Part shown: positions 7,305 through 44,119 of the stretch, in pieces | Layout of the letters: every line of letters starts with the position of its first letter | Numbering within the stretch: the first letter of the stretch is position 1 | DNA from: a virus | IMG/VR virus record: IMGVR_UViG_3300009702_000005 | Location: 1-44,119 of that record | Direction: 5' to 3' (one strand) | Length of the DNA stretch: 44,119 bases | Notes under the pieces: model-generated | What the model saw: the letters and a program-made list of their open reading frames with translations, nothing else | Told to the model about the DNA's origin: nothing | The model's database searches: none | Translations under genes and position numbers: made by a program

Positions 7305-7307
7305 GCT

Positions 7308-8312
7308 ATGACTACTCCCAGAAGTCTACACTATGGCGGTAGATGGGTACGCGTAAAGAATGTTTCTGGTGAGGATATTCCGCCGTATAGTGTAGTCGAG
7401 ATTACTGGTGCATCTAGCGATGATGGTATTCTCAATGCCGATAAACCATCATCTTCTGGGGATGATTATAGACACGGATTGAGTGGTCCGGCTACGATTA
7501 AATCAGGCGATCATGGGGATGTAACGTTCGACCTTCCCGCTTGGGCTTCCTTTGATTCGTCTGATGGAACTCCGGCTAATGGAGATTTATGGGGAGCTAA
7601 GAGCGGTAGTTGGAAACTCGGTAATACTGGCGACAGTAATTTTCCAGTATTAGGGAGTGTCGATACCACTAATGAAGTGATGTTGGTAGGGAGCTATTGG
7701 TCGGCTGGAAAGCCTGATGTTGAGTTGTTTGTCTCCGACTCTGATAGAGCTTACCCAGATTTTGCTGGTTCTGTACTATCTGGAAATTTCTACAATCTAA
7801 ATTTACAGTGGGATAGGGCAGGTGATGCTAGACTTCCATTAGTCGGATTGCATGGAGCAATAATTAGCCGCGATACTCCGGTTACTACTCACGATCCATT
7901 AGACTCTCCCTTTGCCTACTATACAGTGAAAAGTGCATACTGGACTCAGCCAATTATACTTGTTGGTACTACAATTTTGTACTTAGTAAGTAAAAGTACC
8001 GGATACGGAGCATACGAATGGTGGATAGGTACATATGATAGTTCATTTCCGGGCTTACTCTTTACTAAGTACAAGAAGTTACCTAACGTTTTTGATAAAA
8101 TTCTTGAAGGAAGTTCTGGATTAGCGTCACCTACGACAATAGATGATAGAGCAATACTATGGTGGACTGAGGACGCTGGATGGATAGGAATGCAGGTAGG
8201 GTATACTGGTGATAAAACAGTAATTACTAACGTGTCGGTAAATCCAGACGGCACAGTAGCATCAGTTACTACAGAGACATGGACATATAATAAAGGGATA
8301 TTACTCCCATAA
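7308..8312 (+). CDS. tail fibre / receptor-binding protein candidate, 334 aa
   Basis: Last virion-like ORF of the tail block. Called by position only. Confidence 0.35.
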   Translation: MTTPRSLHYGGRWVRVKNVSGEDIPPYSVVEITGASSDDGILNADKPSSSGDDYRHGLSGPATIKSGDHGDVTFDLPAWASFDSSDGTPANGDLWGAKSGSWKLGNTGDSNFPVLGSVDTTNEVMLVGSYWSAGKPDVELFVSDSDRAYPDFAGSVLSGNFYNLNLQWDRAGDARLPLVGLHGAIISRDTPVTTHDPLDSPFAYYTVKSAYWTQPIILVGTTILYLVSKSTGYGAYEWWIGTYDSSFPGLLFTKYKKLPNVFDKILEGSSGLASPTTIDDRAILWWTEDAGWIGMQVGYTGDKTVITNVSVNPDGTVASVTTETWTYNKGILLP

Positions 8313-29581: not shown

Positions 29582-30565
29582 ATGTGCAAGGTGTTAGCTG
29601 TTGCTCTGTTGAGCTTGCTATGGTGTAAGGTAGGGGTTGCTCAGTACGTCACTGAGATACGAGCTAAGGTAGTTGGCTGTACTAGTCCGTTCGGGTGAAG
29701 TGGAGTTAGTCACGGCAATACCGTAGTTGGAATAAACTATGGTACTGCCGTTCCTATCGGTCAGATAGGTGGAAAGACGTTTCTGATTACAGCCGGGCAT
29801 GTAGTGCAGTATGTAACATCCCCAGAAATAGGTGTGCGCGGTGAGTGGGCGAAGGTGAAAATCGTCGCGGTCTACACTAAAAACAACATAGACCTTGCTA
29901 TAGTAAGCTATGCCGGAAAGCTGGATAGCTTTTGTCTTGCTAAGTCTGTAGCTAGATTGGGAACGGTTGTTACTCTAGCATCTATCCGCGATAAAAAGTA
30001 TGCTTGGAGAGATTCGCGTATAACAGCTAACTCTACAGAACAAGCCGGTAGTCGTGGTCGATTTAAGGCTGAGTTAGTTGAAGCTGGAATAGGTGTAATC
30101 TCAGGCGAATCCGGGGGAGCAATCCTTAATAAGAGCAAACAAGTTGTGGGCATCATCGTAGCCGGTACAGACGCCAGAACGGTAGCGGTAGACTCTGTGG
30201 CTGTTCGTCGTTATGTTTCGCGGATTTTGGGTAGACTTCCCTCTTGTGGGACGCTACAATTACCGCAACGGCCGAAGATTGTGCAGCGCAAGCCGCCAGT
30301 GAAAATAGCCCCAATACCGCCGAGGGAGACCAAACAACTGCAACCGCCAACAGCGTTAAAGGAATTGCAGGCACAGCTTCAAGCTACCCAAAAGGAAGTT
30401 GTGAGGCTACAACAAGAGCTATCAGCTATGGCAGCTAGGCAAGCCAAACCCCTAAAGGTTAGGATACTCACTACTGATGGTAAGTTGGTAGATGAGAAGC
30501 AGTACAAGCCCGGAGAGACAATAGACTTGTATTTGGTTCCGCAGGGTAGCGGCAAAGGAAGGTGA
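29582..30565 (+). CDS. secreted trypsin-like serine protease with a Pro-rich linker and C-terminal coiled coil, interrupted by an in-frame TGA at 29696..29698
   Basis: ATG with AAAGGAACGG upstream. Signal-peptide-like MCKVLAVALLSLLWCKVGVAQ. Same frame across the TGA. Catalytic triad motifs LITAGHVV (His codon 29798..29800), DLAIV and GESGGAI. There is no in-frame ATG/GTG/TTG between the TGA and the GTG at 29804, which lies after the His. Confidence 0.65.
29696..29698 (+). other. in-frame TGA inside the serine protease reading frame (..SPFG*SGVSHG..)
   Basis: Codon-by-codon reading from ATG 29582. Confidence 0.9.
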
Positions 30566-30567
30566 TT

Positions 30568-30843
30568 ATGGAAGGTATCCCAGAAACACGACGCGGCACT
30601 AGGTACTTCGATTGTCCAGAGTGTAAGTATTCGTGGAGTCATGTATCGCGCGACGCAGCATCCCCTAGTGGAAAGAATTGCCCGAAGTGTGGAGAGTTTT
30701 GCCAGCCTACACGGTATGAGCTTGATAGTAGCATCAGTGTTGATAGGCTTGGTAATCTGATAGAAGACAATGAAGACTCTATTGTAGAGTCTACCAGTGA
30801 GGCAGGAACGGAAGATAAGGAACAGGAAAATGGCAGCGGTTGA
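30568..30843 (+). CDS. zinc-ribbon protein, 91 aa (alternative GTG start at 30562)
   Basis: CPECKYSW....CPKCGEFC. AAGGAAGGTG SD. It overlaps the protease stop. Confidence 0.55.
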   Translation: MEGIPETRRGTRYFDCPECKYSWSHVSRDAASPSGKNCPKCGEFCQPTRYELDSSISVDRLGNLIEDNEDSIVESTSEAGTEDKEQENGSG

Positions 30844-31060
30844 CCTGAGTGAGAATGTTGCTAACGCATTGCTGACTGACGCTATGCAGGCTGGTAAGAT
30901 TGCCATGAATAATTTTATCACTGTGCAGAAGTTGGTTGACTATGATTACATGGAAGGTAAACGTGTTATCGGTTTGACTGAAGCTGTTGGTGTACGTGAA
31001 GTTGCCAGCAAGTCAGTACCGGCTGGTCCGGTTAGTCCGGGTACTGCTAATACTCAGTAG
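30830..31060 (+). CDS. hypothetical protein, 76 aa
   Basis: ATG preceded by AAGGAACAGGAA. It overlaps the upstream gene by 14 nt. Confidence 0.45.
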   Translation: MAAVDLSENVANALLTDAMQAGKIAMNNFITVQKLVDYDYMEGKRVIGLTEAVGVREVASKSVPAGPVSPGTANTQ

Positions 31061-31284
31061 CATGTGGTTGTGGTGGCCGCTGGTCCCGGCCTAGCAGCAA
31101 GGGTTGTAGTCGTATGGGTAGAGTCGAGCGGTTTACCTACCTTACGCAAGACTCAGGGGTACTACACGACTCCCCTTGCTGTTTTTACTACATTAGGATC
31201 ATAGCTGTATACTCTCGGCAGTACAGCGCGAGTTTGCATGACGTGAAACTATCAAGCTAACTAGCATGTAACAGAGTAGCAGCT

Positions 31285-31545
31285 ATGGTCCCATTAGTCC
31301 AGTTAATGCGGGAAGGCAGGAAGCTGCAAGATAGGTTCGTAGAGGCTAATGCTAGGCTGGATTACCTACAAGTTTCCGGCGGCATAGCAGACCTTGACCC
31401 GGCGAGCGTAATCGTGGAGCGGAACGATGCAACAATCGACAGAAAACACGTTCCTGAAGTTTCTGACCCAGAAACTCGGCCTGCGAGTGATGCACGACCA
31501 GATAGTAGTAGCGGACCACAAGAAACAAAGGGACCAAGTACATAG
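31285..31545 (+). CDS. hypothetical protein, 86 aa
   Basis: ORF after a 224-bp intergenic gap. The RBS is weak and the C-terminal half is low complexity. Confidence 0.35.
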   Translation: MVPLVQLMREGRKLQDRFVEANARLDYLQVSGGIADLDPASVIVERNDATIDRKHVPEVSDPETRPASDARPDSSSGPQETKGPST

Positions 31546-31576
31546 CCTAGTAGATAAGTATAAGGAACGGCTAGGT

Positions 31577-31873
31577 ATGAACGCATCTACTGACGGCAGC
31601 GATGACAACTTTCAAGTAGGCGACACGACATACCATATATCACAACCAGCCAAGCAGTCATTACTAAAGCCGTTGCTAGGCACCGCATTAACTGCTGGAT
31701 TGTTAGGTAGTGGTATAGGCGCTGCCGCTATTCCAGCGTTGTCAGCTATGGGGTTACTAGGCAATAAGCCGCAACAACAGCAAGTAATTCCCAGAGATAC
31801 TAAGCCAACACCAAAGGTTTCAAAGGCGGTTGATACGAATACGTGGGAAAGTCTCAGATTACACCAACCATAA
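31577..31873 (+). CDS. small membrane protein with a Gly-zipper-like TM segment, 98 aa
   Basis: ATG 31577 has AAGGAACGG upstream, the same SD form as the protease. TM segment LLGTALTAGLLGSGIGAAAIPALSAMGLLG. The longer track ORF from 31427 would overlap the 31285 ORF. Confidence 0.45.
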   Translation: MNASTDGSDDNFQVGDTTYHISQPAKQSLLKPLLGTALTAGLLGSGIGAAAIPALSAMGLLGNKPQQQQVIPRDTKPTPKVSKAVDTNTWESLRLHQP

Positions 31874-31938
31874 GAAAGGGGGTGATTGCTATGTTGTGAT
31901 TTCAGAAACAGCTAAATACGCCAACAGATCGGCGACAT

Positions 31939-31971
31939 GATAGGGCTATGGCATAAGGCTGTAGCCCTATC
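31939..31971. repeat. perfect 10-bp inverted repeat GATAGGGCTA / TAGCCCTATC (13-nt spacer), with a third ATAGGGC half-site at 32002..32008
   Basis: Read directly. It lies in the 180-bp intergenic region upstream of 32053. Confidence 0.8.
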
Positions 31972-32052
31972 GTATAGCTAGTACGTGAACACCAGAATGC
32001 TATAGGGCCATAGCGTCTAACTATGGTCCTAATCTACATAGGAGCGGAACTA

Positions 32053-32409
32053 ATGAAGACTCACAAGACACCGGGACTGGTAATAGTCGCATTGCTTGCA
32101 GCGTATCTGCTTGGAGCAGCTACACATAGCACAATGCTACGCGCTGCTAATGGCATAACTGCATTTGATGATCTAGTATGCCATACGTTCACAGCTTCAA
32201 GGTATGCTGTTATTGGAGACGACAAGACGGGTGATGTAGTTGCGAAAGCAACTAGACAATACACTACTCTAGCGGTATCAAACAGGAGTGGTAAGGTCAG
32301 TTGTGGTTTCGTTGTTCAGGGTGGAGTAGCCTATCTTGGCTGGAAAGATAAAGACGGCACACATAGGCTACGAATGGACGCTCTTGACAAACTGAGCAAA
32401 AGACCGTAG
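32053..32409 (+). CDS. signal-anchored / secreted hypothetical protein, 118 aa
   Basis: AGGAG 8 nt upstream of the ATG. N-terminal MKTHKTPGLVIVALLAAYLLGAATH. Confidence 0.5.
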   Translation: MKTHKTPGLVIVALLAAYLLGAATHSTMLRAANGITAFDDLVCHTFTASRYAVIGDDKTGDVVAKATRQYTTLAVSNRSGKVSCGFVVQGGVAYLGWKDKDGTHRLRMDALDKLSKRP

Positions 32410-32421
32410 TATTGTGGCGTT

Positions 32422-32880
32422 ATGCCTACGCTACCAAAGACAACTCGCAAAGACGACTACTACACTGGTAGGCGCGCCAACCTATCCAAGCGTGAAGTTC
32501 ATTCCGCGCTAGAGAAATCAAGGGGGCGCGTCTATCTTGCCTCCCAGATGCTCGAATGCCATCCAAACGCGATCTACCGTTACATGCAACGGTATCCAGA
32601 GACTAAAGCGTTCTGCGAGGAAATTCGAGAACGAGCTATTGAAGTCGTTGAAGATAAACTATTTGAAGCGGCTGAAGATGGTAAAGCGTGGGCAGTTCAA
32701 TTTTTCCTGAAATGCCAAGCTAAGCATAGAGGCTACGTCGAACGGCAAGAGCATAACGTGACAGCCGATATAGCTGCTACGCTCACTGTTGAGACTGTGA
32801 GGGAGGCATTAAGTGAGCTTAGGAATCTTGGGGCAAGTCAAGCCCTCAGAATTGCTAAAGGCAATGGCGAGTCCGGGTAG
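32422..32880 (+). CDS. terS: terminase small subunit candidate, 152 aa
   Basis: It lies immediately upstream of, and overlaps, terL. HTH-like segment SRGRVYLASQMLECHPNAIYRYMQRY. Confidence 0.55.
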   Translation: MPTLPKTTRKDDYYTGRRANLSKREVHSALEKSRGRVYLASQMLECHPNAIYRYMQRYPETKAFCEEIRERAIEVVEDKLFEAAEDGKAWAVQFFLKCQAKHRGYVERQEHNVTADIAATLTVETVREALSELRNLGASQALRIAKGNGESG

Positions 32881-34240
32881 TTTCGCTGAGACTGTCAGCG
32901 ACTACTGGATAATGGCTAAACACCTAGACGCTATCAATACTGAGCTTACTACGCTAATACTTGACCGTGATAGGCTTGACTACCGCATACTGGTCATAGA
33001 AGCCCCTCCACGACACGGCAAGAGTGATTTCATTTCTAAGCACCTACCAGTCTGGTATCTGCTTCACTATCCCCAGAATAGAGCAATTCTTGCCAGTTAT
33101 GAAGCTAACTATGCGCGTAGTTGGGGGCGTAAGGCAAGAGACCTATTTTCTGAAGTTGCACCGATAGTAGGTCTCTCAGTTAGTGCTGACGTAGCTGCAA
33201 GTTATGATTGGGAAATATCTGGGATACCTAATGCCGGTGGAATGTTGTGTGCTGGTGTAGGTGGTCCGATTACAGGACGTGGGGCTAACTTGTTAATTGT
33301 AGATGATTACTTCAAGAACTCAGAACAAGCTATCTCAGCTACAGTACGAGATAGTATTTGGGAATGGTGGCAGTCTACGGCGTACACACGATTAGAGCCT
33401 GACGGCGTAGTAGTTATCATAGCTACACGCTGGCATCCCGATGGATTGATCGGTCGAATAGGTGAGTCGTTCAACGGCGAGAAAATCAAGGTTGTCAGTC
33501 TACCAGCCGTAAGCAGAGGAAAGGACACTGACTATCTTCATAGACCCAGAGGCCGGGTATTGTGGCCGAAGCGCTGGCCTGCAACTAAGCTAAAGGCAAT
33601 TAAGAATAGCATAGATACCTATTGGTGGAATTCACTATATCAACAGTCGCCTACAGGCTATGGAGTAGCTGAATGGCCGGTAGCATACTTTCAGGATATA
33701 TACGCTAACGTACTACCCTTAGCTTATGATGCTAAGGTGTTAGCCGTAGACCCATCTAAAGGAAAGGTAACTGGCGACTACTGCTCTGCAATTTCCTCTT
33801 GCCTTTGTGGTGGTAAGGTATATATAGATGGGTTTGTTGAACGCTTACCTGTTGAGGAATTGGTGGACCGCGTACTTGACCTGCATGTAAAATATGGGTT
33901 TGACGTGATTGGGGTTGAAGCTAATGCGTTTCAAGATTTGTTAGCTCCCATGTTTGCGCATCGTGCAAGACAGAGACATTTAGGTGTAGTGCCTATTACG
34001 ATGATTCACAACACAACGAACAAAGAGTTACGAATACGAAGGATAGGGCCATACTTAGCTAGTTCACTACTACGATTCTCCCCTTCTCCGGGCATGGAAT
34101 TGTTAGTAAAACAGCTACGAGAATATCCAAACGCACAACATGATGATGGACCAGACGCGCTAGAAATGGCACTACGCCTACTGAACTGGTTGACGAAACA
34201 GAGACTACTAACAGACGAAGACGTACCGGTGATGCTATGA
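32864..34240 (+). CDS. terL: terminase large subunit, 458 aa
   Basis: Walker A-like IEAPPRHGKSDF, Walker B LLIVDDY, coupling motif IATRWHPDGLIGR, and a C-terminal nuclease region with DPS..GDY. Confidence 0.85.
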   Translation: MASPGSFAETVSDYWIMAKHLDAINTELTTLILDRDRLDYRILVIEAPPRHGKSDFISKHLPVWYLLHYPQNRAILASYEANYARSWGRKARDLFSEVAPIVGLSVSADVAASYDWEISGIPNAGGMLCAGVGGPITGRGANLLIVDDYFKNSEQAISATVRDSIWEWWQSTAYTRLEPDGVVVIIATRWHPDGLIGRIGESFNGEKIKVVSLPAVSRGKDTDYLHRPRGRVLWPKRWPATKLKAIKNSIDTYWWNSLYQQSPTGYGVAEWPVAYFQDIYANVLPLAYDAKVLAVDPSKGKVTGDYCSAISSCLCGGKVYIDGFVERLPVEELVDRVLDLHVKYGFDVIGVEANAFQDLLAPMFAHRARQRHLGVVPITMIHNTTNKELRIRRIGPYLASSLLRFSPSPGMELLVKQLREYPNAQHDDGPDALEMALRLLNWLTKQRLLTDEDVPVML

Positions 34241-34401
34241 CACGCGAAGACGACATACTTAAAGATATAGGCCGAACTAAGCGAACTATCTTGTTCGTAG
34301 TTAGATGGCTTACCGCAATAGCTAAGGGACTAGCTACTGTGATAGCTTTTGTAACGCGCAAAGGGAAAGCAAAGGATACTACACATAATGGAAAACTCTA
34401 A
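34237..34401 (+). CDS. small single-TM protein candidate, 54 aa (below the ORF-track cutoff)
   Basis: ATGA overlap with the terL stop. Sequence MTREDDILKDIGRTKRTILFVVRWLTAIAKGLATVIAFVTRKGKAKDTTHNGKL. It overlaps the portal start by 14 nt. Confidence 0.35.
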   Translation: MTREDDILKDIGRTKRTILFVVRWLTAIAKGLATVIAFVTRKGKAKDTTHNGKL

Positions 34402-37400
34402 AGACCTACAAGAGCAGCTAACAGTTGATAAGTTGAAACTTCAACTACAGATGCTTGAAGCGCAGAAACAACAAATACAAGCGGCCGGTCTATTAGAAAC
34501 AACCGGATGGGGACAACGTGTTCCCCAGAGTGAGTATCCGTGGAACGATTCATACAAAGACTTTGGGCTTGGTGCGCCGTCTACTGGTATTGTCACGCGA
34601 GTAGATGATAGGACAGACCGTAAATATCTACCAGTTTATCGTACTGAATACGACTTGCGTAGAATGCGAGCACGTCATAGGTCTCTCTTTCATTTTGTTT
34701 CTGTGATTAGTGGTCTGTCTGATACACTGGTGAACTACATAGTAGGTGAAGGATTCACTGTTGAGATAACACCTAGCAAGCAATTTGAGAGTGACCCGGA
34801 AGCTAGGCGTATATCCAATACGCTACAACTATTAGTTGACGACTTTCTTGAATCCATTGATTTCAACGGTGGGTTGGATAACGACATAGTAAACAGCACT
34901 ATCACAGATGGAGAAGTGTTTTTAGCTATGTATCCAGACTCTACTGGTAAGCGTGGCGGCTTTCCATCAGTACGTAAGATAGAGCCTGATGAAGTTACAG
35001 AGCCGCAAAACCCGCTACCGATTGAGCGATGGCTTGGTACGCTTGACCAATTCGAGAGCTTTTGGGATTTCGGCGTACACACTAGATTCTGCCCAGAGCT
35101 AAAGCGGAATGACGTAGAAAATCCGCTAGGCTATCATGTAGTCTTTAATGACGGCGGAACTGAGTGGGATTACATCCCAGAAGATCGAATGATTCATGTT
35201 AAGCGTAATGTCACGCGCAGAGCTAAGCGCGGAGTGAGCGATATATTAGCAGTCGAAGTTGAAGTTGATAAGACTGCTAAATTACGCGAGCGTACTGCTG
35301 ATGGGGCAATTGCACAAGCTGCTATTGCGTTTATTCGCCAGTGGAACGCTACTAAGTCTGACGTTGAGTCTTTAGTTAGTGAGCAGTTTGGTATTGATGT
35401 ACAACGGCCTAAAGACAGAGGCCTATCAACTAAGCGGGCTGTAGCGTTGGACCGGACAAGAATCATTGATATTCCGCAGGGAGCACAATATCAGGCTGGT
35501 CCGCTTGGTACACTACGTAGTCCGGTGTTTGTTGAAGTTGCTCAGTTTCTTTTGCGGCTTGCGGCTGTTCGTTGGGCAATGCCGGAGTTTCTTATTAGTG
35601 GTGATGCGAGCAATAATAATTTTGCATCTACACTAGTTACTGAGTCGCCATTTGTAAAAGCACGTGAGCGGGATCAGCGATTCTTTAGTAAGCCAATTAA
35701 GGAACTCATTGAAAAGTTTATACGCATCTACCATAGTACGCATAGGTTTGATCGTGTGGCTACTGAATGGAATGTGTTTCGGCGATTGTTCAATATAGTA
35801 ATTACGCCAAGCGAAGTAGCTACAAGGGATAAGCAAGCGGCAGCACAGTATAATAAAGTGTTGAATGATAGTGGAATCAAAAGTAAGAGAACGTGGGCAT
35901 CTGAGGAAGGGCTTGACTACGATGCTGAACAAGAAAATATACAGTCAGAACCGCAACAGGCATCGTCTATGCCGGGCTTTGGTGGTAGCTCACAAAGCCC
36001 TTTCCCTGAGAGTGTGATAGCAGGTATTGAAGCTATCCGCTACCATAATTCCAGTGTAGGATTGTCCGAAGGAACGTCTGGTTGTGGTACTGGCAAAGGG
36101 GGATTTGGTAACGATAATACTTGTGCTGTTGGGCATGGCAGTAATAAGAAAGACCTATTGGGTAGAGACGAGACTGATGTAACGCTGTCTGGTAAACCTG
36201 AGATAGAATTAAGATCAGAAAATGAGGATTATAAAAGAGCATCTAAAGTATTACTCGGCAAAGAAATATCGTCAGAAGACATAGCTAATCTTGTAGGTGC
36301 GCCTGATACAAGCATTGCTCATGTGACGGCAGGGTTTGCAAGTCTTGATAAGAACCAAGAAATAAGAACTTACTACCGCGATCAGTCTTTAGGGATACGG
36401 GCGTCTAGGACAATAAGTTTAGACGAATTTGGACATCCTATAATTAGAAATGAGGAGTTTATAATTTCACCGAGTAAGGAAGGTAAGGGTATTGGTACTA
36501 GAGTCTTTGCTAATGAAGTTGCTGAAGCATCTAAAGCAGGAATATCTAGTATACGTACAAATGCAGCACGAAATAGCGACCTGAATGGGTATTATACATG
36601 GCCGCGACTAGGCTACGACGGTGAGTTGCCAGAGTCTACACAGACAAAAGTACGCGATGCAGTATTCACAGGAAAACTCCCGCATAGTCCTACACTGGAT
36701 AGGGATGGAAACATCCATGTATCAGATTTAATGAAAACAGAGAAAGGTAGGAAGTGGTGGAAGGAAAATGGACATGGGTTAAATGTAGAGTTTGATCTTT
36801 CTAAAGGTTCACAATCGCGCAGAGTGTTACGCAAGTATCTTCAAAAGCGTTTTGGAGATACTATGGGAGTCACTGAATCTCAGACTCCCGCAGGCGTCCC
36901 ACAAGACCCGCAAGACCCGCAGCAAAGGCTGGAATACCCCGATACCCTTACCCCAGAGGAAGATTCGATTCTCGCGTCTGTCTGGGATGAAATAGCGGCT
37001 GAAGATGGCGCTATCCAAGAGGGTACTACAGGCTGTGGTACTGGCAAAGGGGGATTTGGCACAGGCAATACTTGTGCTGTTGGGCATGGGGGGCCGAAGA
37101 CTAAGGTATCGCCAGAGGAGGAAGCGCGTCTTAAAGCGTTACCGACAGACGAGAAGCTGAACATCATAACCGGCAACGCTGCTAAGAGGGCGGTACTTCT
37201 ACGTAACCGGTTGATTGAGAAACATGGCTTTACCTATCAACCATTGAGCGATACAGAGCCGGATAGAGGGTTTGTAGTTAGTATCTTTCCGCAAGATAGT
37301 TTGGTGTTAGAGGGGCAAAGCGCTACGCCTAAGATAATCAAGGATTACATTGTTGACCATGCTAGACGGTTTACCAATACTAAGATTAAGGTTGGTGGTT

Positions 37401-37702
37401 GGTACAGTACAGACGATGATAAGACATTCCTTGATGTGAACGTGGTATTAAAGGATAAAGCTAAGGCAATTCGTCTAGGTAAGAAACACGATCAAATTTC
37501 TATCTTCGATTTACTCACTGGTGAGACTATCTTTATTGGTGGTACTGGCGGAGTACGTGAGAGTGATAATCGCGGTACACCGATCAAATTTACTATGCTC
37601 ACGATTGATCCTAGTACAATGTCTGAAGCTGAAATTGAGACCGCAGCGGAGAAACTCGCGAAGCAATTGAACACGTTCCGTACAGAAGGGCAGGCAGCAT
37701 AG
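34388..37702 (+). CDS. portal protein fused to a ~580-aa C-terminal extension (GNAT-like domain plus an unknown domain, each preceded by a Cys/Gly-rich motif), 1104 aa
   Basis: Position directly after terL. The N-terminal ~520 aa is portal-sized. The extension contains IISPSKEGKGIGTRVFANEVAEASKAGISSIRTNAARNSDLNGYYTWPRLGYD (GNAT motif A-like) and two copies of EGT(S/T)GCGTGKGGFGxxNTCAVGHG. Confidence 0.7.
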   Translation: MENSKDLQEQLTVDKLKLQLQMLEAQKQQIQAAGLLETTGWGQRVPQSEYPWNDSYKDFGLGAPSTGIVTRVDDRTDRKYLPVYRTEYDLRRMRARHRSLFHFVSVISGLSDTLVNYIVGEGFTVEITPSKQFESDPEARRISNTLQLLVDDFLESIDFNGGLDNDIVNSTITDGEVFLAMYPDSTGKRGGFPSVRKIEPDEVTEPQNPLPIERWLGTLDQFESFWDFGVHTRFCPELKRNDVENPLGYHVVFNDGGTEWDYIPEDRMIHVKRNVTRRAKRGVSDILAVEVEVDKTAKLRERTADGAIAQAAIAFIRQWNATKSDVESLVSEQFGIDVQRPKDRGLSTKRAVALDRTRIIDIPQGAQYQAGPLGTLRSPVFVEVAQFLLRLAAVRWAMPEFLISGDASNNNFASTLVTESPFVKARERDQRFFSKPIKELIEKFIRIYHSTHRFDRVATEWNVFRRLFNIVITPSEVATRDKQAAAQYNKVLNDSGIKSKRTWASEEGLDYDAEQENIQSEPQQASSMPGFGGSSQSPFPESVIAGIEAIRYHNSSVGLSEGTSGCGTGKGGFGNDNTCAVGHGSNKKDLLGRDETDVTLSGKPEIELRSENEDYKRASKVLLGKEISSEDIANLVGAPDTSIAHVTAGFASLDKNQEIRTYYRDQSLGIRASRTISLDEFGHPIIRNEEFIISPSKEGKGIGTRVFANEVAEASKAGISSIRTNAARNSDLNGYYTWPRLGYDGELPESTQTKVRDAVFTGKLPHSPTLDRDGNIHVSDLMKTEKGRKWWKENGHGLNVEFDLSKGSQSRRVLRKYLQKRFGDTMGVTESQTPAGVPQDPQDPQQRLEYPDTLTPEEDSILASVWDEIAAEDGAIQEGTTGCGTGKGGFGTGNTCAVGHGGPKTKVSPEEEARLKALPTDEKLNIITGNAAKRAVLLRNRLIEKHGFTYQPLSDTEPDRGFVVSIFPQDSLVLEGQSATPKIIKDYIVDHARRFTNTKIKVGGWYSTDDDKTFLDVNVVLKDKAKAIRLGKKHDQISIFDLLTGETIFIGGTGGVRESDNRGTPIKFTMLTIDPSTMSEAEIETAAEKLAKQLNTFRTEGQAA
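36083..36138 (+). repeat. 56-nt direct repeat, copy 1 (51/56 identical to 37034..37089), encoding CGTGKGGFG..NTCAVGHG
   Basis: Aligned by eye. Identical 26-nt and 22-nt blocks flank an 8-nt divergent core. Confidence 0.9.
37034..37089 (+). repeat. 56-nt direct repeat, copy 2
   Basis: See copy 1. Confidence 0.9.
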
Positions 37703-37703
37703 T

Positions 37704-38663
37704 ATGGCTTTTAGTGTTCCATTAGTGTTTGGTTTACGTTTATCTCTACGAACTGCAATAGAGATACGCGCAGCTAGATTACTAAAGCACGCATTTTCTC
37801 ACTATAAACAATTGCTTGTTCGCGCTACTAAGCCTGAAGATATAGCTGGTGCATGGGACCATATGGAGTCAGAAGTAGCCGAAGCTTTATTTGTTTTCGG
37901 AGAGTCAATGTTTTTAGCTGTAGTAAGGCAGGCTAATGCTGATATGCTGGAAGGGGGTATAGAAGCTGCTATAGTAGCCCATGAGATAGCTAAGTTTGCA
38001 GCTAAAAGAATAGTTGAGCATACTAAGAGAGTGGTAGGTAATTCTCTTACACTTAATGAGTCTCTATTTCGTAGGCTTGAACAGCTTTTAGAGGACCTGT
38101 TTGGTGATAGCCGTGTTCGTAGAATCATAACAACAACAGGTACTAAGATAGAGACTAGGGCTATTGAGTTTATTGCTGAAGATAAAGAAGTTGATGAAGC
38201 TGGTACGCGGGATAGAATCAAGGTTACTAAGCTTCAACGAGCTAAGGATGGGACTATAAAAGCAGTCAATGGAAAACGTATAAAGGCAGGTAGTACGCTT
38301 GGTGGTGTGGTAGCAGATATTGACATAAAAAATGGACTAGCTAAGGCGCTTGGAAAACGTCCTAAGTTCAATAAAGATGGTAGTTTACCGGCTAGTGAAT
38401 TAGTAGAACCGTCAACAGTAGAGGGACATGAAGGTAGGAAGTTCAAAATGATATGGCGGTTAAATCCGTTATGTAATCACTGTAGTTTCTGTCCATTGAT
38501 TGCTGGAACAGATTCACTTTTCTACAAAAGATTTGTCGAAGGTCCGCCCGCACACGTAAATTGCTGTTGCAATGTCGAAATAGTATCTGTAGACTTCCCA
38601 GAGAAGACACGACCGCAAGTAGTTTTGGTATTACAGGCAGCAAGAGAAATTGGGTTGATTTAA
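37704..38663 (+). CDS. MuF / SPP1 gp7-like head morphogenesis protein, 319 aa
   Basis: C-terminal GPPAHVNCCCNVE corresponds to the PPxHxNCRC signature. Position right after the portal. Confidence 0.7.
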   Translation: MAFSVPLVFGLRLSLRTAIEIRAARLLKHAFSHYKQLLVRATKPEDIAGAWDHMESEVAEALFVFGESMFLAVVRQANADMLEGGIEAAIVAHEIAKFAAKRIVEHTKRVVGNSLTLNESLFRRLEQLLEDLFGDSRVRRIITTTGTKIETRAIEFIAEDKEVDEAGTRDRIKVTKLQRAKDGTIKAVNGKRIKAGSTLGGVVADIDIKNGLAKALGKRPKFNKDGSLPASELVEPSTVEGHEGRKFKMIWRLNPLCNHCSFCPLIAGTDSLFYKRFVEGPPAHVNCCCNVEIVSVDFPEKTRPQVVLVLQAAREIGLI

Positions 38664-38665
38664 TC

Positions 38666-39937
38666 ATGCCGTTTGCTGGATTCGCTAACTTTGCAGCATG
38701 TATCGCAGATCAGCGGAGCAAAGGTAAAGACCTAGACTCTGCTAAGAAAATCTGTGGTAAACTACAAGCGAAAGAGGGGTTTGATTCAATAGCTACTCCA
38801 GAAAGTTTGTCTGATACGGTAACACTACAAGAGTCTACTCTATCTAGTAGGGTGGACGAAGACGCTGGTGTAATCCGTAATGTCAAGATTCTAGGCTTGA
38901 CAAGTAAGAATGGTCGTATCTATTCTGTTGATGCGATCAGAGAAGCACAGCATTTGTACGATGGTGTGAAGGTCTACATAGATCATCCAGTCGGGAGAGC
39001 CGACAGACCATACGTTTCTGGGTTTGGTGAGATTCGTAATCCGAGTGTCAAAGAAAGTTCTGGTCTGTATGGAGACCTGTATTACAACACAAGGCATCCA
39101 CAAGCTAATCAAATTGCTGAGGATGCTAGACGGTTTCCAACAAACTTTGGCTTATCGCATAACGCTGAAGGAACTGTAGCAAGGAAAGGTGGTAAGCTAG
39201 TAGTGGACAAGATAAACTATGTTGAATCAGTTGACATAGTAGGGCGTCCAGCAACTAACAAAAGTCTGTTCGAGTCTTATACAGGGAGTGAGTCAGTGAA
39301 AAAATCAGTTGATCGAATTGTGAAAGACGTTCCTAGCAATACGCCGGGGTTGGTTGGATTGCTCGAACAGATGGAAGACGGAACTCTCGCGCCGACTGAT
39401 ATTGTGGACATGCCCGCGCCGGATAGTCCGAGTGAACCGGTTGATCCACAAGAACAGGTCAAGGCGGCAATTAAGGCGGCAATCATTGCAGCCTTTGAAG
39501 ACCCGACTTTGGACATTCAGGGTACGCTTGCGCAAATCAAGAAAATCCTGAAAGCTCACGAAGATATTGTTGGTCCTGTTGGTCCTGATGCGTCTCCAAA
39601 ATCTAATAAAACTCCCGCAGATACTGCTGGAGATACTGGACCAGAGACTCCCGCAGAAGACAAAGAGAAAGACAAGACGATTGAGAGTTTGCAGCGTAAG
39701 GTTAGAGCGCTGGAAATTCTTGAATCGGTCAAGGTGCCGAGTAGTTCAGTTAAGGTCAAGGCACTAATCGCGCTTGATACTGAGCGGGAAATGCGGCAAC
39801 TTGCAGAAAGTTGGTCGGGTGGCAGTATTGGTAGTGGTCGGCCTGCACAGTCCGCAGCGGCATATGGTCGTGGTGGAAGTTTTGACGCGCAAGTTGCCGG
39901 AGAAAACGGGTTTGCTAAAGCTGTTACAGGAAGGTAA
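38666..39937 (+). CDS. prohead scaffolding protein (possibly a protease-scaffold fusion), 423 aa
   Basis: Position between MuF and the capsid genes. Pro/Asp/Glu-rich linker and a C-terminal coiled-coil-like segment ESLQRKVRALEILES. No protease catalytic residues identified. Confidence 0.5.
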   Translation: MPFAGFANFAACIADQRSKGKDLDSAKKICGKLQAKEGFDSIATPESLSDTVTLQESTLSSRVDEDAGVIRNVKILGLTSKNGRIYSVDAIREAQHLYDGVKVYIDHPVGRADRPYVSGFGEIRNPSVKESSGLYGDLYYNTRHPQANQIAEDARRFPTNFGLSHNAEGTVARKGGKLVVDKINYVESVDIVGRPATNKSLFESYTGSESVKKSVDRIVKDVPSNTPGLVGLLEQMEDGTLAPTDIVDMPAPDSPSEPVDPQEQVKAAIKAAIIAAFEDPTLDIQGTLAQIKKILKAHEDIVGPVGPDASPKSNKTPADTAGDTGPETPAEDKEKDKTIESLQRKVRALEILESVKVPSSSVKVKALIALDTEREMRQLAESWSGGSIGSGRPAQSAAAYGRGGSFDAQVAGENGFAKAVTGR

Positions 39938-39945
39938 TAGCAGCG

Positions 39946-39965
39946 CACACACACACACACACACA
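39946..39965. repeat. (CA)10 dinucleotide microsatellite in the scaffold-capsid intergenic leader
   Basis: gcgCACACACACACACACACACAtacgcaca, read directly. Confidence 0.95.
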
Positions 39966-39990
39966 TACGCACATAGAGGGAGAGTGAGTG

Positions 39991-40725
39991 ATGCTTTCAT
40001 TGATGCAGGCAAGCGACCGCTTCGCTAAGTTGCTTGGTAACTATGAATTCATTGACGATTTTGACGGTGAATTTGTTGCTGAGGATTGGGCCGCAGTAGG
40101 TGATGCTACAGCCGCGCCTGTAGCGGGAGACGCTGCAAACGGTACTCTTGTTATTACGGCAGCGGCAGCAACGCCAGCCGATAATAATGAGGAGTACATT
40201 CACCGACCGAATGAGAACTTGTTGTTTGCGTCTACGCGGGAAATCATCGCGCTCTTTCGTTTACAGTACGCTGAAGCTGCAACAAACGCTGCTAACATCA
40301 TAGTCGGAATGATGGACGCAGTTGGAGCTAATGCGCTTCAGGATAACGGCGCAGGTCCGAAAGCAAGCTACAGTGGTATGGTGCTGTACAAGGTTGACGG
40401 TGGGACTAACTGGATTTTCGAGACTTCCATTGGTAGCTCGCAGACAACCACTACAAGTGAAAAGACTGCTGGCGGTAGTGGATTTGTTACGATTGGATTG
40501 ATTGCTCGCGGGTTGTCGTCTACTAAAGTTGAATGCATACCATTGCTTGACGACTCTGGCGGATTCAACATGAAACAATTACGCGATGCTAACGGCAACC
40601 TTATCAAGCACACGCTTGACCCAAGTTCTGCTACAGAAATGGAATTGATGGCAGGGCTTAAAATGGGTTCGTCTACAGCCGAAACTCTAACGCTTGACCT
40701 TGCTGCATGTGGGCAGTCTAGGTAA
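39991..40725 (+). CDS. virion structural protein (capsid decoration / jelly-roll-like candidate), 244 aa
   Basis: It lies between the scaffold and the major capsid gene. AGAGGGAGAG SD. FIDDFDGEF..W motif at the N terminus. Function not established. Confidence 0.4.
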   Translation: MLSLMQASDRFAKLLGNYEFIDDFDGEFVAEDWAAVGDATAAPVAGDAANGTLVITAAAATPADNNEEYIHRPNENLLFASTREIIALFRLQYAEAATNAANIIVGMMDAVGANALQDNGAGPKASYSGMVLYKVDGGTNWIFETSIGSSQTTTTSEKTAGGSGFVTIGLIARGLSSTKVECIPLLDDSGGFNMKQLRDANGNLIKHTLDPSSATEMELMAGLKMGSSTAETLTLDLAACGQSR

Positions 40726-40785
40726 TAGTAGTAACAACTGACAGCTAACAATCAACAAATGTGAACGGGATAGGGAGAGAGTACA

Positions 40786-41985
40786 GTGTGGCGCAATCTT
40801 AGAGAAGCTCAGGCGAGTCGGCGACTGTATGAAGCTGCACAAGCTGACGGAACACCGAACCGATTCTTTGCAGAGCTTGCAACAGCGCTGCAAGAGGGAC
40901 AGCTTGACCGGTCAAGATTCTCAATCCGTAATACCTTTCGACAATTCGTCGAAGACGGCAACGAGATGATCGAATCTTTCTCTCCCAGAAATCAAGCTGA
41001 CGGAATGCGATTGCTTGAAGCTGGTGGAGCAGTTGATACTACCGCATTCAGCAACATTACGGGACAGTTTGTTTACTCAACTGTGCTCGAACAATTCCAG
41101 TCGCCTACGTTTATTGCTGGTGATTTGGCGCGTACTGTACCAACCGAATTCAATGGGGAGAAGATTCCCGGTGTTGGCGGGCTTGGTGATGCTACTAAGC
41201 CTATTGGAGAGGGCGAGGATTACCCGACTGCTGGCGTTGGCGAGGAGTGGATTGAAACGCCTGAAACTGATAAGCATGGCGTTATTGTGCCGGTTACGAA
41301 GTAAGCTATTTTCTTCGACCGCACAAGTCTTGTGCTTGATCGTGCTGGTAAGGTTGCAGAAGCGCTTGCTATCCGCAAAGAGAAACGTGTACTGGATGTA
41401 GCGCTTGGTATCACTACTAGCTACGTCAGAAACGGTGCTACTGCACAAGCAACATACGGTAATACGCACACCGAAGGAGACTTCGATAACCTTGTTGCTT
41501 CTAATGCGTTAGTGGATTACACTGACGTTGAAACGGCATTACTCGCGTTTGATTCGATTACCGATCCGAATACGGGTGAGCCGGTTCTGATTAGTGTTGC
41601 TGATGTGGTTGTGCCGAGTGGTTTGCTATTCACAGCCGCGCGAGTCTTTGAAGCAACTGGAATTGAACAAGGAACTATTTCCGCATCTGCGCCGCGCACC
41701 ATTGGCGGTAATCCGTTAGTTAGTCCGGCTGTGAAACGTGGTAATTCCTTTTCGATTACTACTAATCAGTACGTCGCCAACCGAACGGGTAATCAGACTA
41801 CGTGGTTTATTGGCGATTTCAAAGCTGCATTTCAATACCGTGAAAACTGGCCGGTCAGCGTAGTTCAAGCGCCGGAAAATAGTCACGACGATTTTCACCG
41901 CGATATTGTATCGCAGTTCAAAGTCTCAGAACGTGGTACTCCGGCAGTCATTGAGCCGAGAAAGGTCGTTAAGTGTACTGCCTGA
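40786..41985 (+). CDS. HK97-fold major capsid protein (Mu gpT-like organisation), about 398 aa, interrupted by an in-frame TAA at 41302..41304
   Basis: The two track ORFs (40786..41304 and 41332..41985) are in the same frame. The sequence reads GEGEDYP...TDKHGVIVPVTK*AIFFDRTSLVLDRAGKVAEALAIRKEKRVLDVALG, which is one continuous capsid strand/spine-helix pattern. ATAGGGAGAGAG leader, GTG start. Confidence 0.7.
41302..41304 (+). other. in-frame TAA inside the major capsid protein frame, at a position where related capsid proteins often have a polar or acidic residue
   Basis: gtt acg aag TAA gct att ttc ttc gac. GAA to TAA would be a single substitution. Confidence 0.9.
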
Positions 41986-42043
41986 TATAATAGGTAGTCG
42001 CTAGCATGGAACGGGGATTTCATCGGACAATAGGGAGAGAGAC

Positions 42044-42553
42044 ATGGCAAAGAGGAACAAGAACGGGCACAAACACAAAGACAAGCCTAAAACTGAATCG
42101 TCTTCCCCAGAAGACAATCAACCAGACTTGCCAGATGGGATTGAGCCAATTAACGATAGTACAGCGGTAACTGCTGTACTTGAATTGCCAGCTAAGTCTG
42201 AGCCTGAGCCTGTTGTGCATGCTAAGGCGTACATGGTCTACCCTGTAGGATCAGCGGCACAACAGGCTGGATTAGAGCCAGCACGTATTGACTACGCCTG
42301 TGATGCAAGCGAAGCTATCCGACAGTATGCGGCCGAGCATGTGGGTAGTGGGCTTTCAGCGCAACGGAGAGTAAGTGATTTCACTTACCGTGCTGTTGAA
42401 GTGCTGGATCGTAGGCCACGTACTTCTGAAGGTGCGTTACTTGCACAACTTCCTCCAAAGGAAGCGCAAGCAGTCATTGATAATAAGGAAGTATGTTACT
42501 TCAAGGACGGGTTGTTATGTCGTTGGCCGAAGGGTAAGCAAGTCAAAATCTGA
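42044..42553 (+). CDS. hypothetical head-associated protein, 169 aa
   Basis: Identical ATAGGGAGAGAG leader to the capsid gene. Basic then acidic N terminus. Confidence 0.5.
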   Translation: MAKRNKNGHKHKDKPKTESSSPEDNQPDLPDGIEPINDSTAVTAVLELPAKSEPEPVVHAKAYMVYPVGSAAQQAGLEPARIDYACDASEAIRQYAAEHVGSGLSAQRRVSDFTYRAVEVLDRRPRTSEGALLAQLPPKEAQAVIDNKEVCYFKDGLLCRWPKGKQVKI

Positions 42554-42771
42554 TGGCTACATACTACGATAATCTGCGCACTAGGCGCACAGCAATAGCC
42601 GCAGAACTTGCGGCTATTGACACAACTAAGGCAGGTGGAAAACCTAATGCCTCTGGTGTGGGGGAATCTGTAGATCATGTGGGGTACAAGACAGCGTTAT
42701 ACGCTGAGCTTGAATCAATCAACAAGGAATTGGCAAACGAACCATACGAGATAGAGACGGAAATTCTGTAG
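42553..42771 (+). CDS. hypothetical protein, 72 aa
   Basis: TGATG overlap (1 nt) with the upstream stop. Confidence 0.5.
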   Translation: MATYYDNLRTRRTAIAAELAAIDTTKAGGKPNASGVGESVDHVGYKTALYAELESINKELANEPYEIETEIL

Positions 42772-42775
42772 TGAA

Positions 42776-43141
42776 ATGGCGCTTGACCTTACAGCATTGT
42801 ACGCTAATGATTATCTCAGGTGGGATAATGTTAAGCAGCTTACAGTAACTACAGATAGGCATACTAACGAAGGGGGAGACAAATCAGACATAGTAGGCTA
42901 CTGCAAGCCTGCAACACTACAGCAATCATTAAGGGCGTTTGGTAGCATTCAAGTGTCTGGGGAAGAAATTTCTTGGATAATACCGGACGCCCTTTTGTTA
43001 AATATAGGTAGTCAAGGGTTGCGTAGTGGGGATAAGCTAACAGATTTATCGGTTACTCCGAACATCGTTTACACGATACTTAGAGCGCAGCGGGTGAATT
43101 TTGATACAGCTTGGTTGTTAATGACTATCAAGAGAAAATAG
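42776..43141 (+). CDS. head-tail connector / head closure candidate, 121 aa
   Basis: Position between the capsid and neck genes only. Confidence 0.35.
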   Translation: MALDLTALYANDYLRWDNVKQLTVTTDRHTNEGGDKSDIVGYCKPATLQQSLRAFGSIQVSGEEISWIIPDALLLNIGSQGLRSGDKLTDLSVTPNIVYTILRAQRVNFDTAWLLMTIKRK

Positions 43142-43143
43142 CT

Positions 43144-43632
43144 ATGGCGCTCACTTCACTAATCGGACAACTACTTCTGGATGTTCAATCCCAGATACAA
43201 GCGCTAGCGCTTACTGGTCTGGATTCTGCAAACGTAGTAGTGTTGCCGATACCTATGGACGATAGCTATAAGTTAGTCCCGTCACTTCCAGCCGTTGTAG
43301 TATGCCCATTTGGAATTGAGACAATTAGTGACGGAACTACTCTTAGTGATGACATAGGATACCCGATTCTGGTAGGTATTCTACAGAAGTCAAGTGTAGT
43401 AGAGGAAGCTGCTGACCCTGTTGCTGAGTTAGACAAATATCTATTTTGGCGCGAAGCTATGATAGATGACCAAATACATAACCGTGCTTCAACTAACTTA
43501 GCACCTAATACGCTTATCAATAAGCAGCTAGAACTCAATTCAATTGTGAATCTTGAATCCTACCTACAAGCTGATATGTTTATTAGTAGTTTCGTTGTTC
43601 GCTGCACGGTTCATATAGCTCGACGGACATAG
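43144..43632 (+). CDS. neck / tail terminator-like protein candidate, 162 aa
   Basis: Position. The junction ATAGCTATGG is shared with the next gene. Confidence 0.35.
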   Translation: MALTSLIGQLLLDVQSQIQALALTGLDSANVVVLPIPMDDSYKLVPSLPAVVVCPFGIETISDGTTLSDDIGYPILVGILQKSSVVEEAADPVAELDKYLFWREAMIDDQIHNRASTNLAPNTLINKQLELNSIVNLESYLQADMFISSFVVRCTVHIARRT

Positions 43633-43634
43633 CT

Positions 43635-44119
43635 ATGGGAGCGCTAACTAATGATTTAGGCACACAGATAGTTGATGGACTCAACATAGTAGTGAAGCAA
43701 CTTAGAAATGATGTGCAATCATTACAGTTTCGTGAGACATTATTATCTTTGTTGCCGACAATTCAACGGGATCACCAAACACGATTCGATAATCGAACAA
43801 GCCCAACCGGGGAGGCGTGGGAACCGTGGCATTGGACAAAGATGACCAAACAAGGGCCGTTAGAGCATCCTACGCTCGAATATAGCAAACGACTCAGAAG
43901 TAGTTTGCGCATTGGTGGGCGAGATAATGTATCGGACATAACAGTTGACGGAACTAAGACAACGCTAACATGGGGTACGGCAGTTCCGTATGCGAGGATT
44001 CATAACTTTGGAGCGCGTATAAGATTAGGCATTCCGTTAGTTAGTCGGGATGGAAAAGGATACCTACCGATAGGGACAATCATACACATTCCCCAGAGAG
44101 AGTTTATTGGGTTGTCAGA
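43635..44119 (+). CDS. Mu gpG-like virion morphogenesis / tail completion protein, 5' part. It continues across the terminal repeat to 187, giving 182 aa in total.
   Basis: FDNRTSPTGEAWEPW ... TWGTAVPYARIHNFGARI ... IPQREFIGLS matches the family pattern (W.pl ... YA..hqfG ... ipaRpFlGl). Confidence 0.75.
   Translation, partial: MGALTNDLGTQIVDGLNIVVKQLRNDVQSLQFRETLLSLLPTIQRDHQTRFDNRTSPTGEAWEPWHWTKMTKQGPLEHPTLEYSKRLRSSLRIGGRDNVSDITVDGTKTTLTWGTAVPYARIHNFGARIRLGIPLVSRDGKGYLPIGTIIHIPQREFIGLS
43997..44119. repeat. 123-bp direct terminal repeat, identical to 1..123
   Basis: See the first feature. Confidence 0.95.

Follow-up and report, generated by a model that had tools for sequence, protein, structure and literature searches.

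A phage portal protein extended by a predicted GNAT-fold domain and a common phage module, each preceded by a conserved Cys/Gly peptide

Results

Layout of the locus

The DNA analysed here (44,119 nucleotides (nt), positions 1 to 44,119 of IMG/VR virus record IMGVR_UViG_3300009702_000005; hereafter, the window) encodes, in this order, terS, terL, an open reading frame (ORF) of 1104 amino acids (aa), a MuF-like ORF, a scaffold-like ORF and the major capsid protein, and the subject of this study is the 1104-aa ORF, which combines a portal domain with a long C-terminal extension. The initial annotation of the window had described this ORF as a portal-sized N-terminal half fused to a polyvalent-protein-like extension, and the ORF is indeed one open frame (34388..37702, + strand) directly 3' of terL. 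Codon 521 falls at window position 35948, and the coordinates highlighted in that annotation correspond exactly to the extension beyond the portal, i.e., a tail of 584 residues (521-1104). The tail is organised as a hinge, a Cys/Gly-rich peptide (the junction peptide), a domain of ~230 aa, a second junction peptide, a domain of ~140 aa and a terminal helix (Table 1), an order that reproduces the one read initially (a Gln/Ser/Pro-rich hinge, the motif, a region of ~300 aa, the motif again and a domain of ~200 aa), with 293 aa between the two copies of the peptide and 203 aa after the second. The peptides quoted at that time start at residues 692 (IISPSKEGKGIG...), 948 (FTYQPLSD) and 1002 (VGGWYSTDD). 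Scans of residues 521-1104 against Pfam, PHROG and NCBIfam returned nothing significant.

Table 1. Positions of the 1104-aa ORF's parts and of its flanking genes in the window.
Feature	Position	Strand	Basis
Large terminase, upstream neighbour	32813..34240	+	Pfam Terminase_6N; phrog_38, E = 5.8e-90
Portal domain, residues 1-520 of the 1104-aa ORF	34388..35947	+	PF05136, phrog_21, 70 IMG/VR relatives by tblastn
Gln/Ser/Pro/Gly-rich hinge, residues ~519-560	35942..36067	+	Translation; without family match
Junction peptide copy 1, EGTSGCGTGKGGFGNDNTCAVGHG, residues 561-584	36068..36139	+	Translation, repeat comparison
GNAT-like domain, residues ~600-830 (homology span 586-831)	36185..36877	+	Homologues, AF2, Foldseek, PDB profile search
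Pro/Gln/Asp-rich spacer, residues 831-877	36878..37018	+	Translation; no homology
Junction peptide copy 2, EGTTGCGTGKGGFGTGNTCAVGHG, residues 878-901	37019..37090	+	85% DNA identity to copy 1
C-dom (putative phage cargo domain), residues ~926-1066, conserved GGW..D...YLD and Q..FDL	37163..37585	+	Exhaustive homologue search, AF2, Foldseek
C-terminal amphipathic helix, residues ~1067-1104, and stop codon	37586..37702	+	AF2 model of residues 926-1104 (helix 155-178)
319-aa ORF directly after the portal gene, MuF-like by position	37704..38663	+	Weak C-terminal Cys/His likeness

The N-terminal half matched Pfam PF05136 (Phage_portal_2) over residues 87-415 (57.3 bits vs. a cut-off of 32.9; model positions 20-339 of 354) and the portal family phrog_21 over residues 84-527 (E = 1.3e-34). 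By sequence, residues 1 to ~520 are thus classed as a lambda-type portal, in agreement with the initial annotation. The NCBIfam equivalog for lambda gpB (TIGR01539) reached only 20.1 bits against a cut-off of 172.7, and the portal half is best described as a distant member of the superfamily and not as a lambda gpB orthologue. Its profile matched no solved portal among the PDB sequences, and tblastn of the whole portal against 50,697 GenBank phage records gave no match.

The GNAT-like domain and its carriers

Searching for homologues with residues 521-1104 returned 18 proteins, all of which aligned to residues ~586-831, i.e., to the middle domain. In the 19-sequence alignment, G701, N733-G734, W738-P739 and G742 are invariant and G703 is nearly so, and the features of the family are a G-x-G-x-G loop and an invariant NG..WP..G core that lies inside the NGYYTWPRLGYD motif (residues 733-744), followed by a family-specific elaboration of ~90 aa at the C-terminus, with an invariant WW and G, a near-invariant K and N (WWKENG) and an FDL..GS.S motif. 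The window copy carries a motif A-like KEGKGIG at residues 697-703, in which E698-G-K-G701-I-G703 corresponds to the motif A loop of GNATs (Q/R-x-x-G-x-G/A).

The AlphaFold2 (AF2) model of the domain (pLDDT 90, pTM 0.87) shows a predicted GNAT fold, and its best 50 Foldseek matches in the PDB all belong to the GNAT superfamily (probability 0.8-1.0, E = 1e-4 to 3e-3). The nearest structures among them are NatD, Rv0998 PAT, Naa50 and RimI; Ard1 and SpeG are further members of the 50, which comprise protein N-terminal or lysine acetyltransferases, polyamine and antibiotic acetyltransferases and acyl-homoserine lactone synthases. Profile similarity, the lack of which was part of what the initial annotation had considered fatal to its reading, was likewise found: the profile of the family gave 20 weak hits to PDB sequences (E = 0.02-2), mostly GNATs, aligned on motif A/alpha3/beta5 (KGxGxG), and a single-sequence search gave only a weak match to puromycin N-acetyltransferase (E = 1.5). 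Further, GNAT families were the only recurrent Pfam matches among the 19 family members (sub-threshold in five of the 19), and one IMG/VR relative (L078) passes the Acetyltransf_1 cut-off (21.2 bits vs. 20.7). On the basis of the predicted structure, we conclude that the middle domain, in which the initial annotation had placed a GNAT-like enzyme, probably adopts the GNAT fold and represents a divergent family of it.

This family was found at 71 loci in IMG/VR and at 50 loci in the species representatives of GTDB, at least 120 metagenomic loci in all, and is not a rare one; tblastn of the domain against the GenBank phage records gave no match. Forty of the 50 GTDB loci (L147-L196) are located in metagenome-assembled genomes (MAGs) of Planctomycetota (Planctomycetaceae, Thermoguttaceae, Pirellulales, Tepidisphaeraceae), a bias that hints at the host range of the phages carrying this putative cargo. 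Among the 130 carrier ORFs that were recovered, the portal fusions fell into four Pfam families (Phage_portal, Phage_portal_2, Phage_portal_3 and Portal_Mu) and at least 18 ORFs were MuF fusions; of nine randomly sampled carriers that were otherwise unassigned, three proved to be portal fusions. Most of the 18 homologues mentioned above are MuF (PF04233) fusions as well; one has ADPrib_exo_Tox, one has ART-PolyVal beside MuF, and one sits on a portal of another family. That is, the homologues are mostly found in MuF-fused, ART-containing virion cargo proteins, which fits the polyvalent-protein-like character originally attributed to the extension. A separate case is a 631-aa protein (L106, 4497-6389) with an N-terminal domain resembling the Tis1 immunity protein (PF24154, E = 3.9e-14), in which two tandem GNAT-like copies can be seen by sequence inspection while the HMM coordinates span only one.

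The C-terminal domain

A word-indexed homologue search with the C-terminal domain (C-dom) found nothing; an exhaustive search returned 1954 cluster representatives at E <= 1e-3, aligned to residues ~941-1051. The domain occurs alone in proteins of 120-250 aa and also within proteins of up to 2215 aa, where its sampled neighbours included ART-PolyVal, Peptidase_C39, canonical GNAT, InPase, Zeta toxin, topoisomerase IB, MuF and portals of two families. The AF2 model of C-dom reached a pLDDT of 89. Foldseek found no match to it in the PDB at E <= 1e-3, a profile search of the PDB sequences found nothing meaningful, and the 23 structural matches in BFVD were all to uncharacterised phage proteins. 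The sole named link is a weak one, to DUF3293, for which we found no literature; C-dom matched no Pfam LPD family, and tblastn against the GenBank phage records gave a single marginal match. Hence, the structural comparison of the extension placed the GNAT-like domain among GNATs and C-dom nowhere in the PDB, and the ~200-aa domain that had been left unassigned initially can now be described as a very common uncharacterised module of the same class of proteins.

The Cys/Gly junction peptide

The junction peptide is present twice in the ORF, in the form EGTxGCGTGKGGFGxxNTCAVGHG. At the DNA level the two copies are 85% identical across 71 nt, including uninterrupted matches of 26 and 23 nt, and such similarity points to a duplication or gene conversion that took place recently within the gene. 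A core of the peptide, CGTGxGGFxxGNxC, also stands between domains in four other proteins (P0003, P0004, P0058 and P0140), with a linker-ART-linker-GNAT-like layout in P0004, two copies in P0140 and six in P0058, i.e., up to six copies per protein, and a sister form (CPTGxGGGxDPxC) exists too. A degenerate DNA pattern for the core matched at least 119 IMG/VR contigs, and the consensus of 126 distinct instances reads [D/N]-CGTG-[A/S]-GGF-[K/Q]-[P/E]-GN-[T/D]-C-[A/G]-x, followed by a Gly run. The recognisable neighbours of the peptide were portals, MuF, GNAT-like, Zeta, ART and C-dom modules. Other phages keep the peptide with different codons, which indicates that selection extends to the peptide rather than being confined to the DNA, and we therefore ruled out that the repeats serve as DNA recombination sites and nothing else.

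One locus (L073, 1839-7497) encodes a fusion of Phage_portal_3 and Zeta toxin (963 aa), followed by MuF. Another gene lies 3 nt downstream of the stop codon of MuF and still in its frame; this gene has a GGAG ribosome-binding site of its own, and its product (P0004) is organised as junction-ART-junction-GNAT-like. Portal cargo and MuF-adjacent cargo can therefore coexist in one phage. This separately translated gene starts with an 18-aa leader followed by the junction peptide, an arrangement that, as far as sequence can tell, argues against a pure linker role of the peptide.

Extensions among related portals

The portal-length survey of the relatives covered 70 IMG/VR relatives of the portal domain (tblastn), 62 of which have a complete 3' end. 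A tail of at least 60 aa beyond the end of the portal match was present in 56 of these 62 (one of the 56, L070, counts through an intein insertion and not a tail), with 37 tails of 111-210 aa and 14 of 211-400 aa. The tails include ADPrib_exo_Tox (after the same junction peptide), InPase, ART-PolyVal and a conserved domain of ~100 aa. Neither GNAT-like nor C-dom modules were found in any of the 70 relatives, and the 584-aa tail of the window is the longest in the set; a longer relative, P0140 (1385 aa), consists of a portal, two junction peptides, C-dom and Zeta toxin. The initial annotation had implied that a portal fusion would be exceptional, and this was overstated given the frequency of tails in the clade, the four portal families involved and the precedents reported in the available text of PMC5512222 and PMC9503650.

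Most of the related portals (L005, L020, L025, L028, L032 and others) share the ~100-aa tail domain (...PPEAARNNARRVLKWRDEHGD...GWTRANQL...WLGWGG...), which has no Pfam match and is often followed by a Cys-rich end. In L070 (~6001-8739), the intein-like insertion follows ...NNNYAC, a motif conserved in the portal domain; it has a Cys at the junction and a weak match to LAGLIDADG_3, below the Pfam cut-off.

Neighbouring genes and integrity of the genome

The initial annotation placed a separate MuF gene downstream of the portal. A separate 319-aa ORF does lie there; its MuF identity was not confirmed: Pfam, PHROG and NCBIfam gave no significant match, and the C-terminal Cys/His motif matched the ends of MuF proteins only weakly. 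The Cys/His-rich end of this ORF (...CNHCSFCPL...PPAHVNCCCN) is reminiscent of MuF C-termini (PPxHxNCxC-like). MuF genes typically come after portal genes, and such families are defined by position (PMC5576092); judging by sequence and position, the 319-aa ORF may belong to an unmodelled MuF-like family. On the other side of the locus, a 253-aa ORF (29804-30565) contains GESGG, a motif resembling that of chymotrypsin, and weakly matches a protease PHROG (E = 0.0019), with no obvious catalytic His in the ORF as called; it is the sole protease-like candidate in the region examined (window 29804-44119).

Positions 1-123 of the window are identical to positions 43997-44119, and this 123-nt terminal overlap suggests that the window represents a complete genome of ~43,996 bp, either circular or terminally redundant. 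The same 1104-aa ORF, with R78G as the only difference, is present in an ENA contig (44,135 bp) and in a Logan contig (14,238 bp). The major capsid gene of the window is broken by an in-frame TAA at 41302-41304 (ORFs 40786..41304 and 41332..41985), where the ENA twin contig has GAA (Glu) and an intact 399-aa Phage_capsid_4 gene; this single G-to-T change must come from an error in sequencing or else from a nonsense variant carried by part of the population. The two assemblies also differ by one CA unit in a (CA)n run at ~39945-39965, between the scaffold-like ORF and the ORF at 39988..40725.

Discussion

Proposed function and alternatives

In solved portals, the C-terminal crown faces the interior of the capsid, and portals are dodecamers. 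By the same geometry, about 12 copies of the tail (~64 kDa per chain, ~770 kDa in total) would be located inside the head, beside the DNA exit channel. We consider it reasonably probable that the portal protein doubles as a carrier of virion-internal cargo. That is, a lambda-type portal would carry two cargo modules, a divergent GNAT-fold acyl/acetyltransferase and the widespread C-dom, each introduced by a junction peptide; the modules would travel in the virion and then be delivered to the host along with the DNA, as proposed for polyvalent and MuF-fused proteins, and the GNAT-like domain would acylate a host target early in infection. Release from the portal would probably take place by cleavage at or near the junction peptides, although cleavage at these peptides is conjecture. 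What the sequences themselves show is the identity of the domains, their modular arrangement, their association with head-internal carriers and their return on MuF and on portals of four families. The available text of PMC5512222 and PMC9503650 likewise proposes that effector domains fused to portal or MuF are packaged and injected. As for the substrate of the GNAT-like domain, a protein is suggested by its nearest structural neighbours and by analogy to the phage GNAT Rac, which acetylates the alpha subunit of RNA polymerase (as cited in the available text of PMC7824862).

It is important to note that several points weigh against this hypothesis. Release from the portal is its weakest link: without cleavage, the tail would remain bound to the portal and the host would be out of its reach, and the ~17 kb that we examined, head module included, contained no recognisable prohead protease. 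A resemblance of the 423-aa ORF (38666..39937) to S78-type proteases is unsupported; this ORF had no Pfam, NCBIfam or PDB match and matched only a PHROG of unknown function. We also found no experimental evidence of packaging, cleavage or injection for any portal fusion of this type. Further, catalytic activity of the window copy of the GNAT-like domain is not assured, since its Pfam score is below the GNAT cut-off (Acetyltransf_7, 13.1 bits vs. 27), the first position of motif A is Glu (Q/R/K/H in most relatives), and the Foldseek TM-scores of the best 50 GNAT matches are low (0.25-0.37). Finally, C-dom appears from its sequence relatives to be a very common phage module without assignable function.

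Alternatively, and in our view somewhat unlikely, the tail might stay covalently attached to the portal and not be injected, acting inside the head or at the portal, for instance as a structural plug or crown or in the control of DNA retention or ejection, or with its enzymes acting in the producer cell before or during assembly. The lack of a recognised protease is consistent with such a tethered tail, and so is the fact that most portal relatives have a ~110-210-aa tail bearing the conserved, non-enzymatic-looking domain (WRDEHGD...GWTRA...WLGWGG), which suggests a portal-associated rather than an effector role for at least some tails. However, the GNAT-like domain and C-dom also turn up in solo proteins, on MuF and on portals of four unrelated families, as well as next to the effector domains ART, Zeta toxin and InPase, and this recurrence across carriers is more in keeping with portable cargo than with a structural part specific to the portal. 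The modules are also separated by flexible hinges and by junctions rich in Gly, which likewise speaks against a fixed structural element.

It is improbable, in comparison, that the GNAT-like domain arrests growth by acetylating aminoacyl-tRNA in the manner of the TacT/AtaT toxins; GNAT toxins with such targets had been invoked as a precedent in the initial annotation. The predicted GNAT fold would be compatible with such an activity, and MuF carriers often bear polymorphic toxin domains (PMC5576092), but the nearest structures are protein N-acetyltransferases, and no aminoacyl-tRNA-acetylating toxin is named among the best 50 structural neighbours. Nor is an antitoxin-like small gene found next to the ORF, as it would be in the toxin-antitoxin systems TacT/AtaT/ItaT; the flanks are terL and the 319-aa MuF-like ORF. 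In addition, the available text of Iyer et al. places the GNATs of polyvalent proteins in a RimI-like, protein-modifying clade (PMC5512222).

That the ORF is an artefact, i.e., two or more genes joined by an assembly error or an undetected frameshift, would be suggested by its unusual length alone and is extremely improbable, because near-identical 1104-aa ORFs are present in three assemblies and homologous portal-cargo fusions in dozens of independent contigs.

A broader and rather doubtful proposition, drawn from the sequence patterns described above, is that the junction peptide is an undescribed, widely conserved boundary signal of separately released modules in virion-packaged polyproteins (a site cut during maturation, an element that cleaves itself or a tag that directs proteins to the head), and that the GNAT-like family is a dedicated injected acyltransferase of phages whose hosts are mainly Planctomycetota. 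If this were true, the sequence alone would allow cargo boundaries to be predicted, the mechanism of release would become directly testable, and a signal of this kind, whether for processing or for targeting, would offer a handle on how phages load and release injected effectors. The locus provides a clear complete-genome example of a portal as a putative carrier of enzyme cargo, which is a small conceptual advance given that portal- and MuF-borne effectors have already been published, and it brings in two protein families without a dedicated Pfam model, for neither of which we found any experimental characterisation. A dodecameric carrier, with its fixed stoichiometry, would also make a convenient model.

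Comparison with known systems

The closest parallel is with the polyvalent proteins, which, according to the available text of Iyer et al. 2017 (PMC5512222) and Iyer et al. 2022 (PMC9503650), are likewise multidomain, encoded in the terminase-portal module, and built from a virion structural domain plus recombining enzymatic or uncharacterised modules. The 1104-aa protein combines disparate domains from a shared pool (portal, GNAT-like and C-dom), its cargo modules recur with MuF, ART, Zeta toxin, InPase, Peptidase_C39 and topoisomerase IB, and its gene lies in a portal-terminase packaging module adjoining other virion genes, so that, architecturally and as judged from its predicted domains, it belongs to the polyvalent class. 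In the same available text, Iyer et al. describe portal fusions to PBECR, 2H, InPase, Nudix and ART, as well as GNATs in polyvalent proteins; we found no mention there of the combination of portal, GNAT-like domain and C-dom, nor, in the available text of PMC5512222, of a linker or junction peptide. The GNAT-like family of the window may differ from both GNAT families described by Iyer et al., because it had no tblastn match among the GenBank phage records.

The MuF polymorphic toxins of temperate phages (Jamet et al. 2017, PMC5576092) similarly join a variable C-terminal enzymatic domain to a head-internal carrier encoded beside the portal, and MuF carriers also hold most homologues of the GNAT-like domain. 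In contrast to these toxins, the carrier here is the portal itself; the ORF has no PF04233 match, and no immunity gene is evident. With the RimI/Naa-like members of the GNAT superfamily, the GNAT-like domain shares the predicted fold and the motif A-like G-x-G-x-G loop before alpha3, and it differs from them in its scores below the Pfam cut-offs, its low TM-scores and its additional C-terminal elaboration of ~90 aa. Finally, T4 Alt, which the available text of PMC5512222 and PMC9503650 cites as a precedent for virion-delivered effectors, the other internal proteins of T4 and the ejection proteins of P22 share with the model proposed here the idea that proteins packaged in the head accompany the genome into the host; these, however, are separate polypeptides targeted to the head, as opposed to covalent extensions of the portal.

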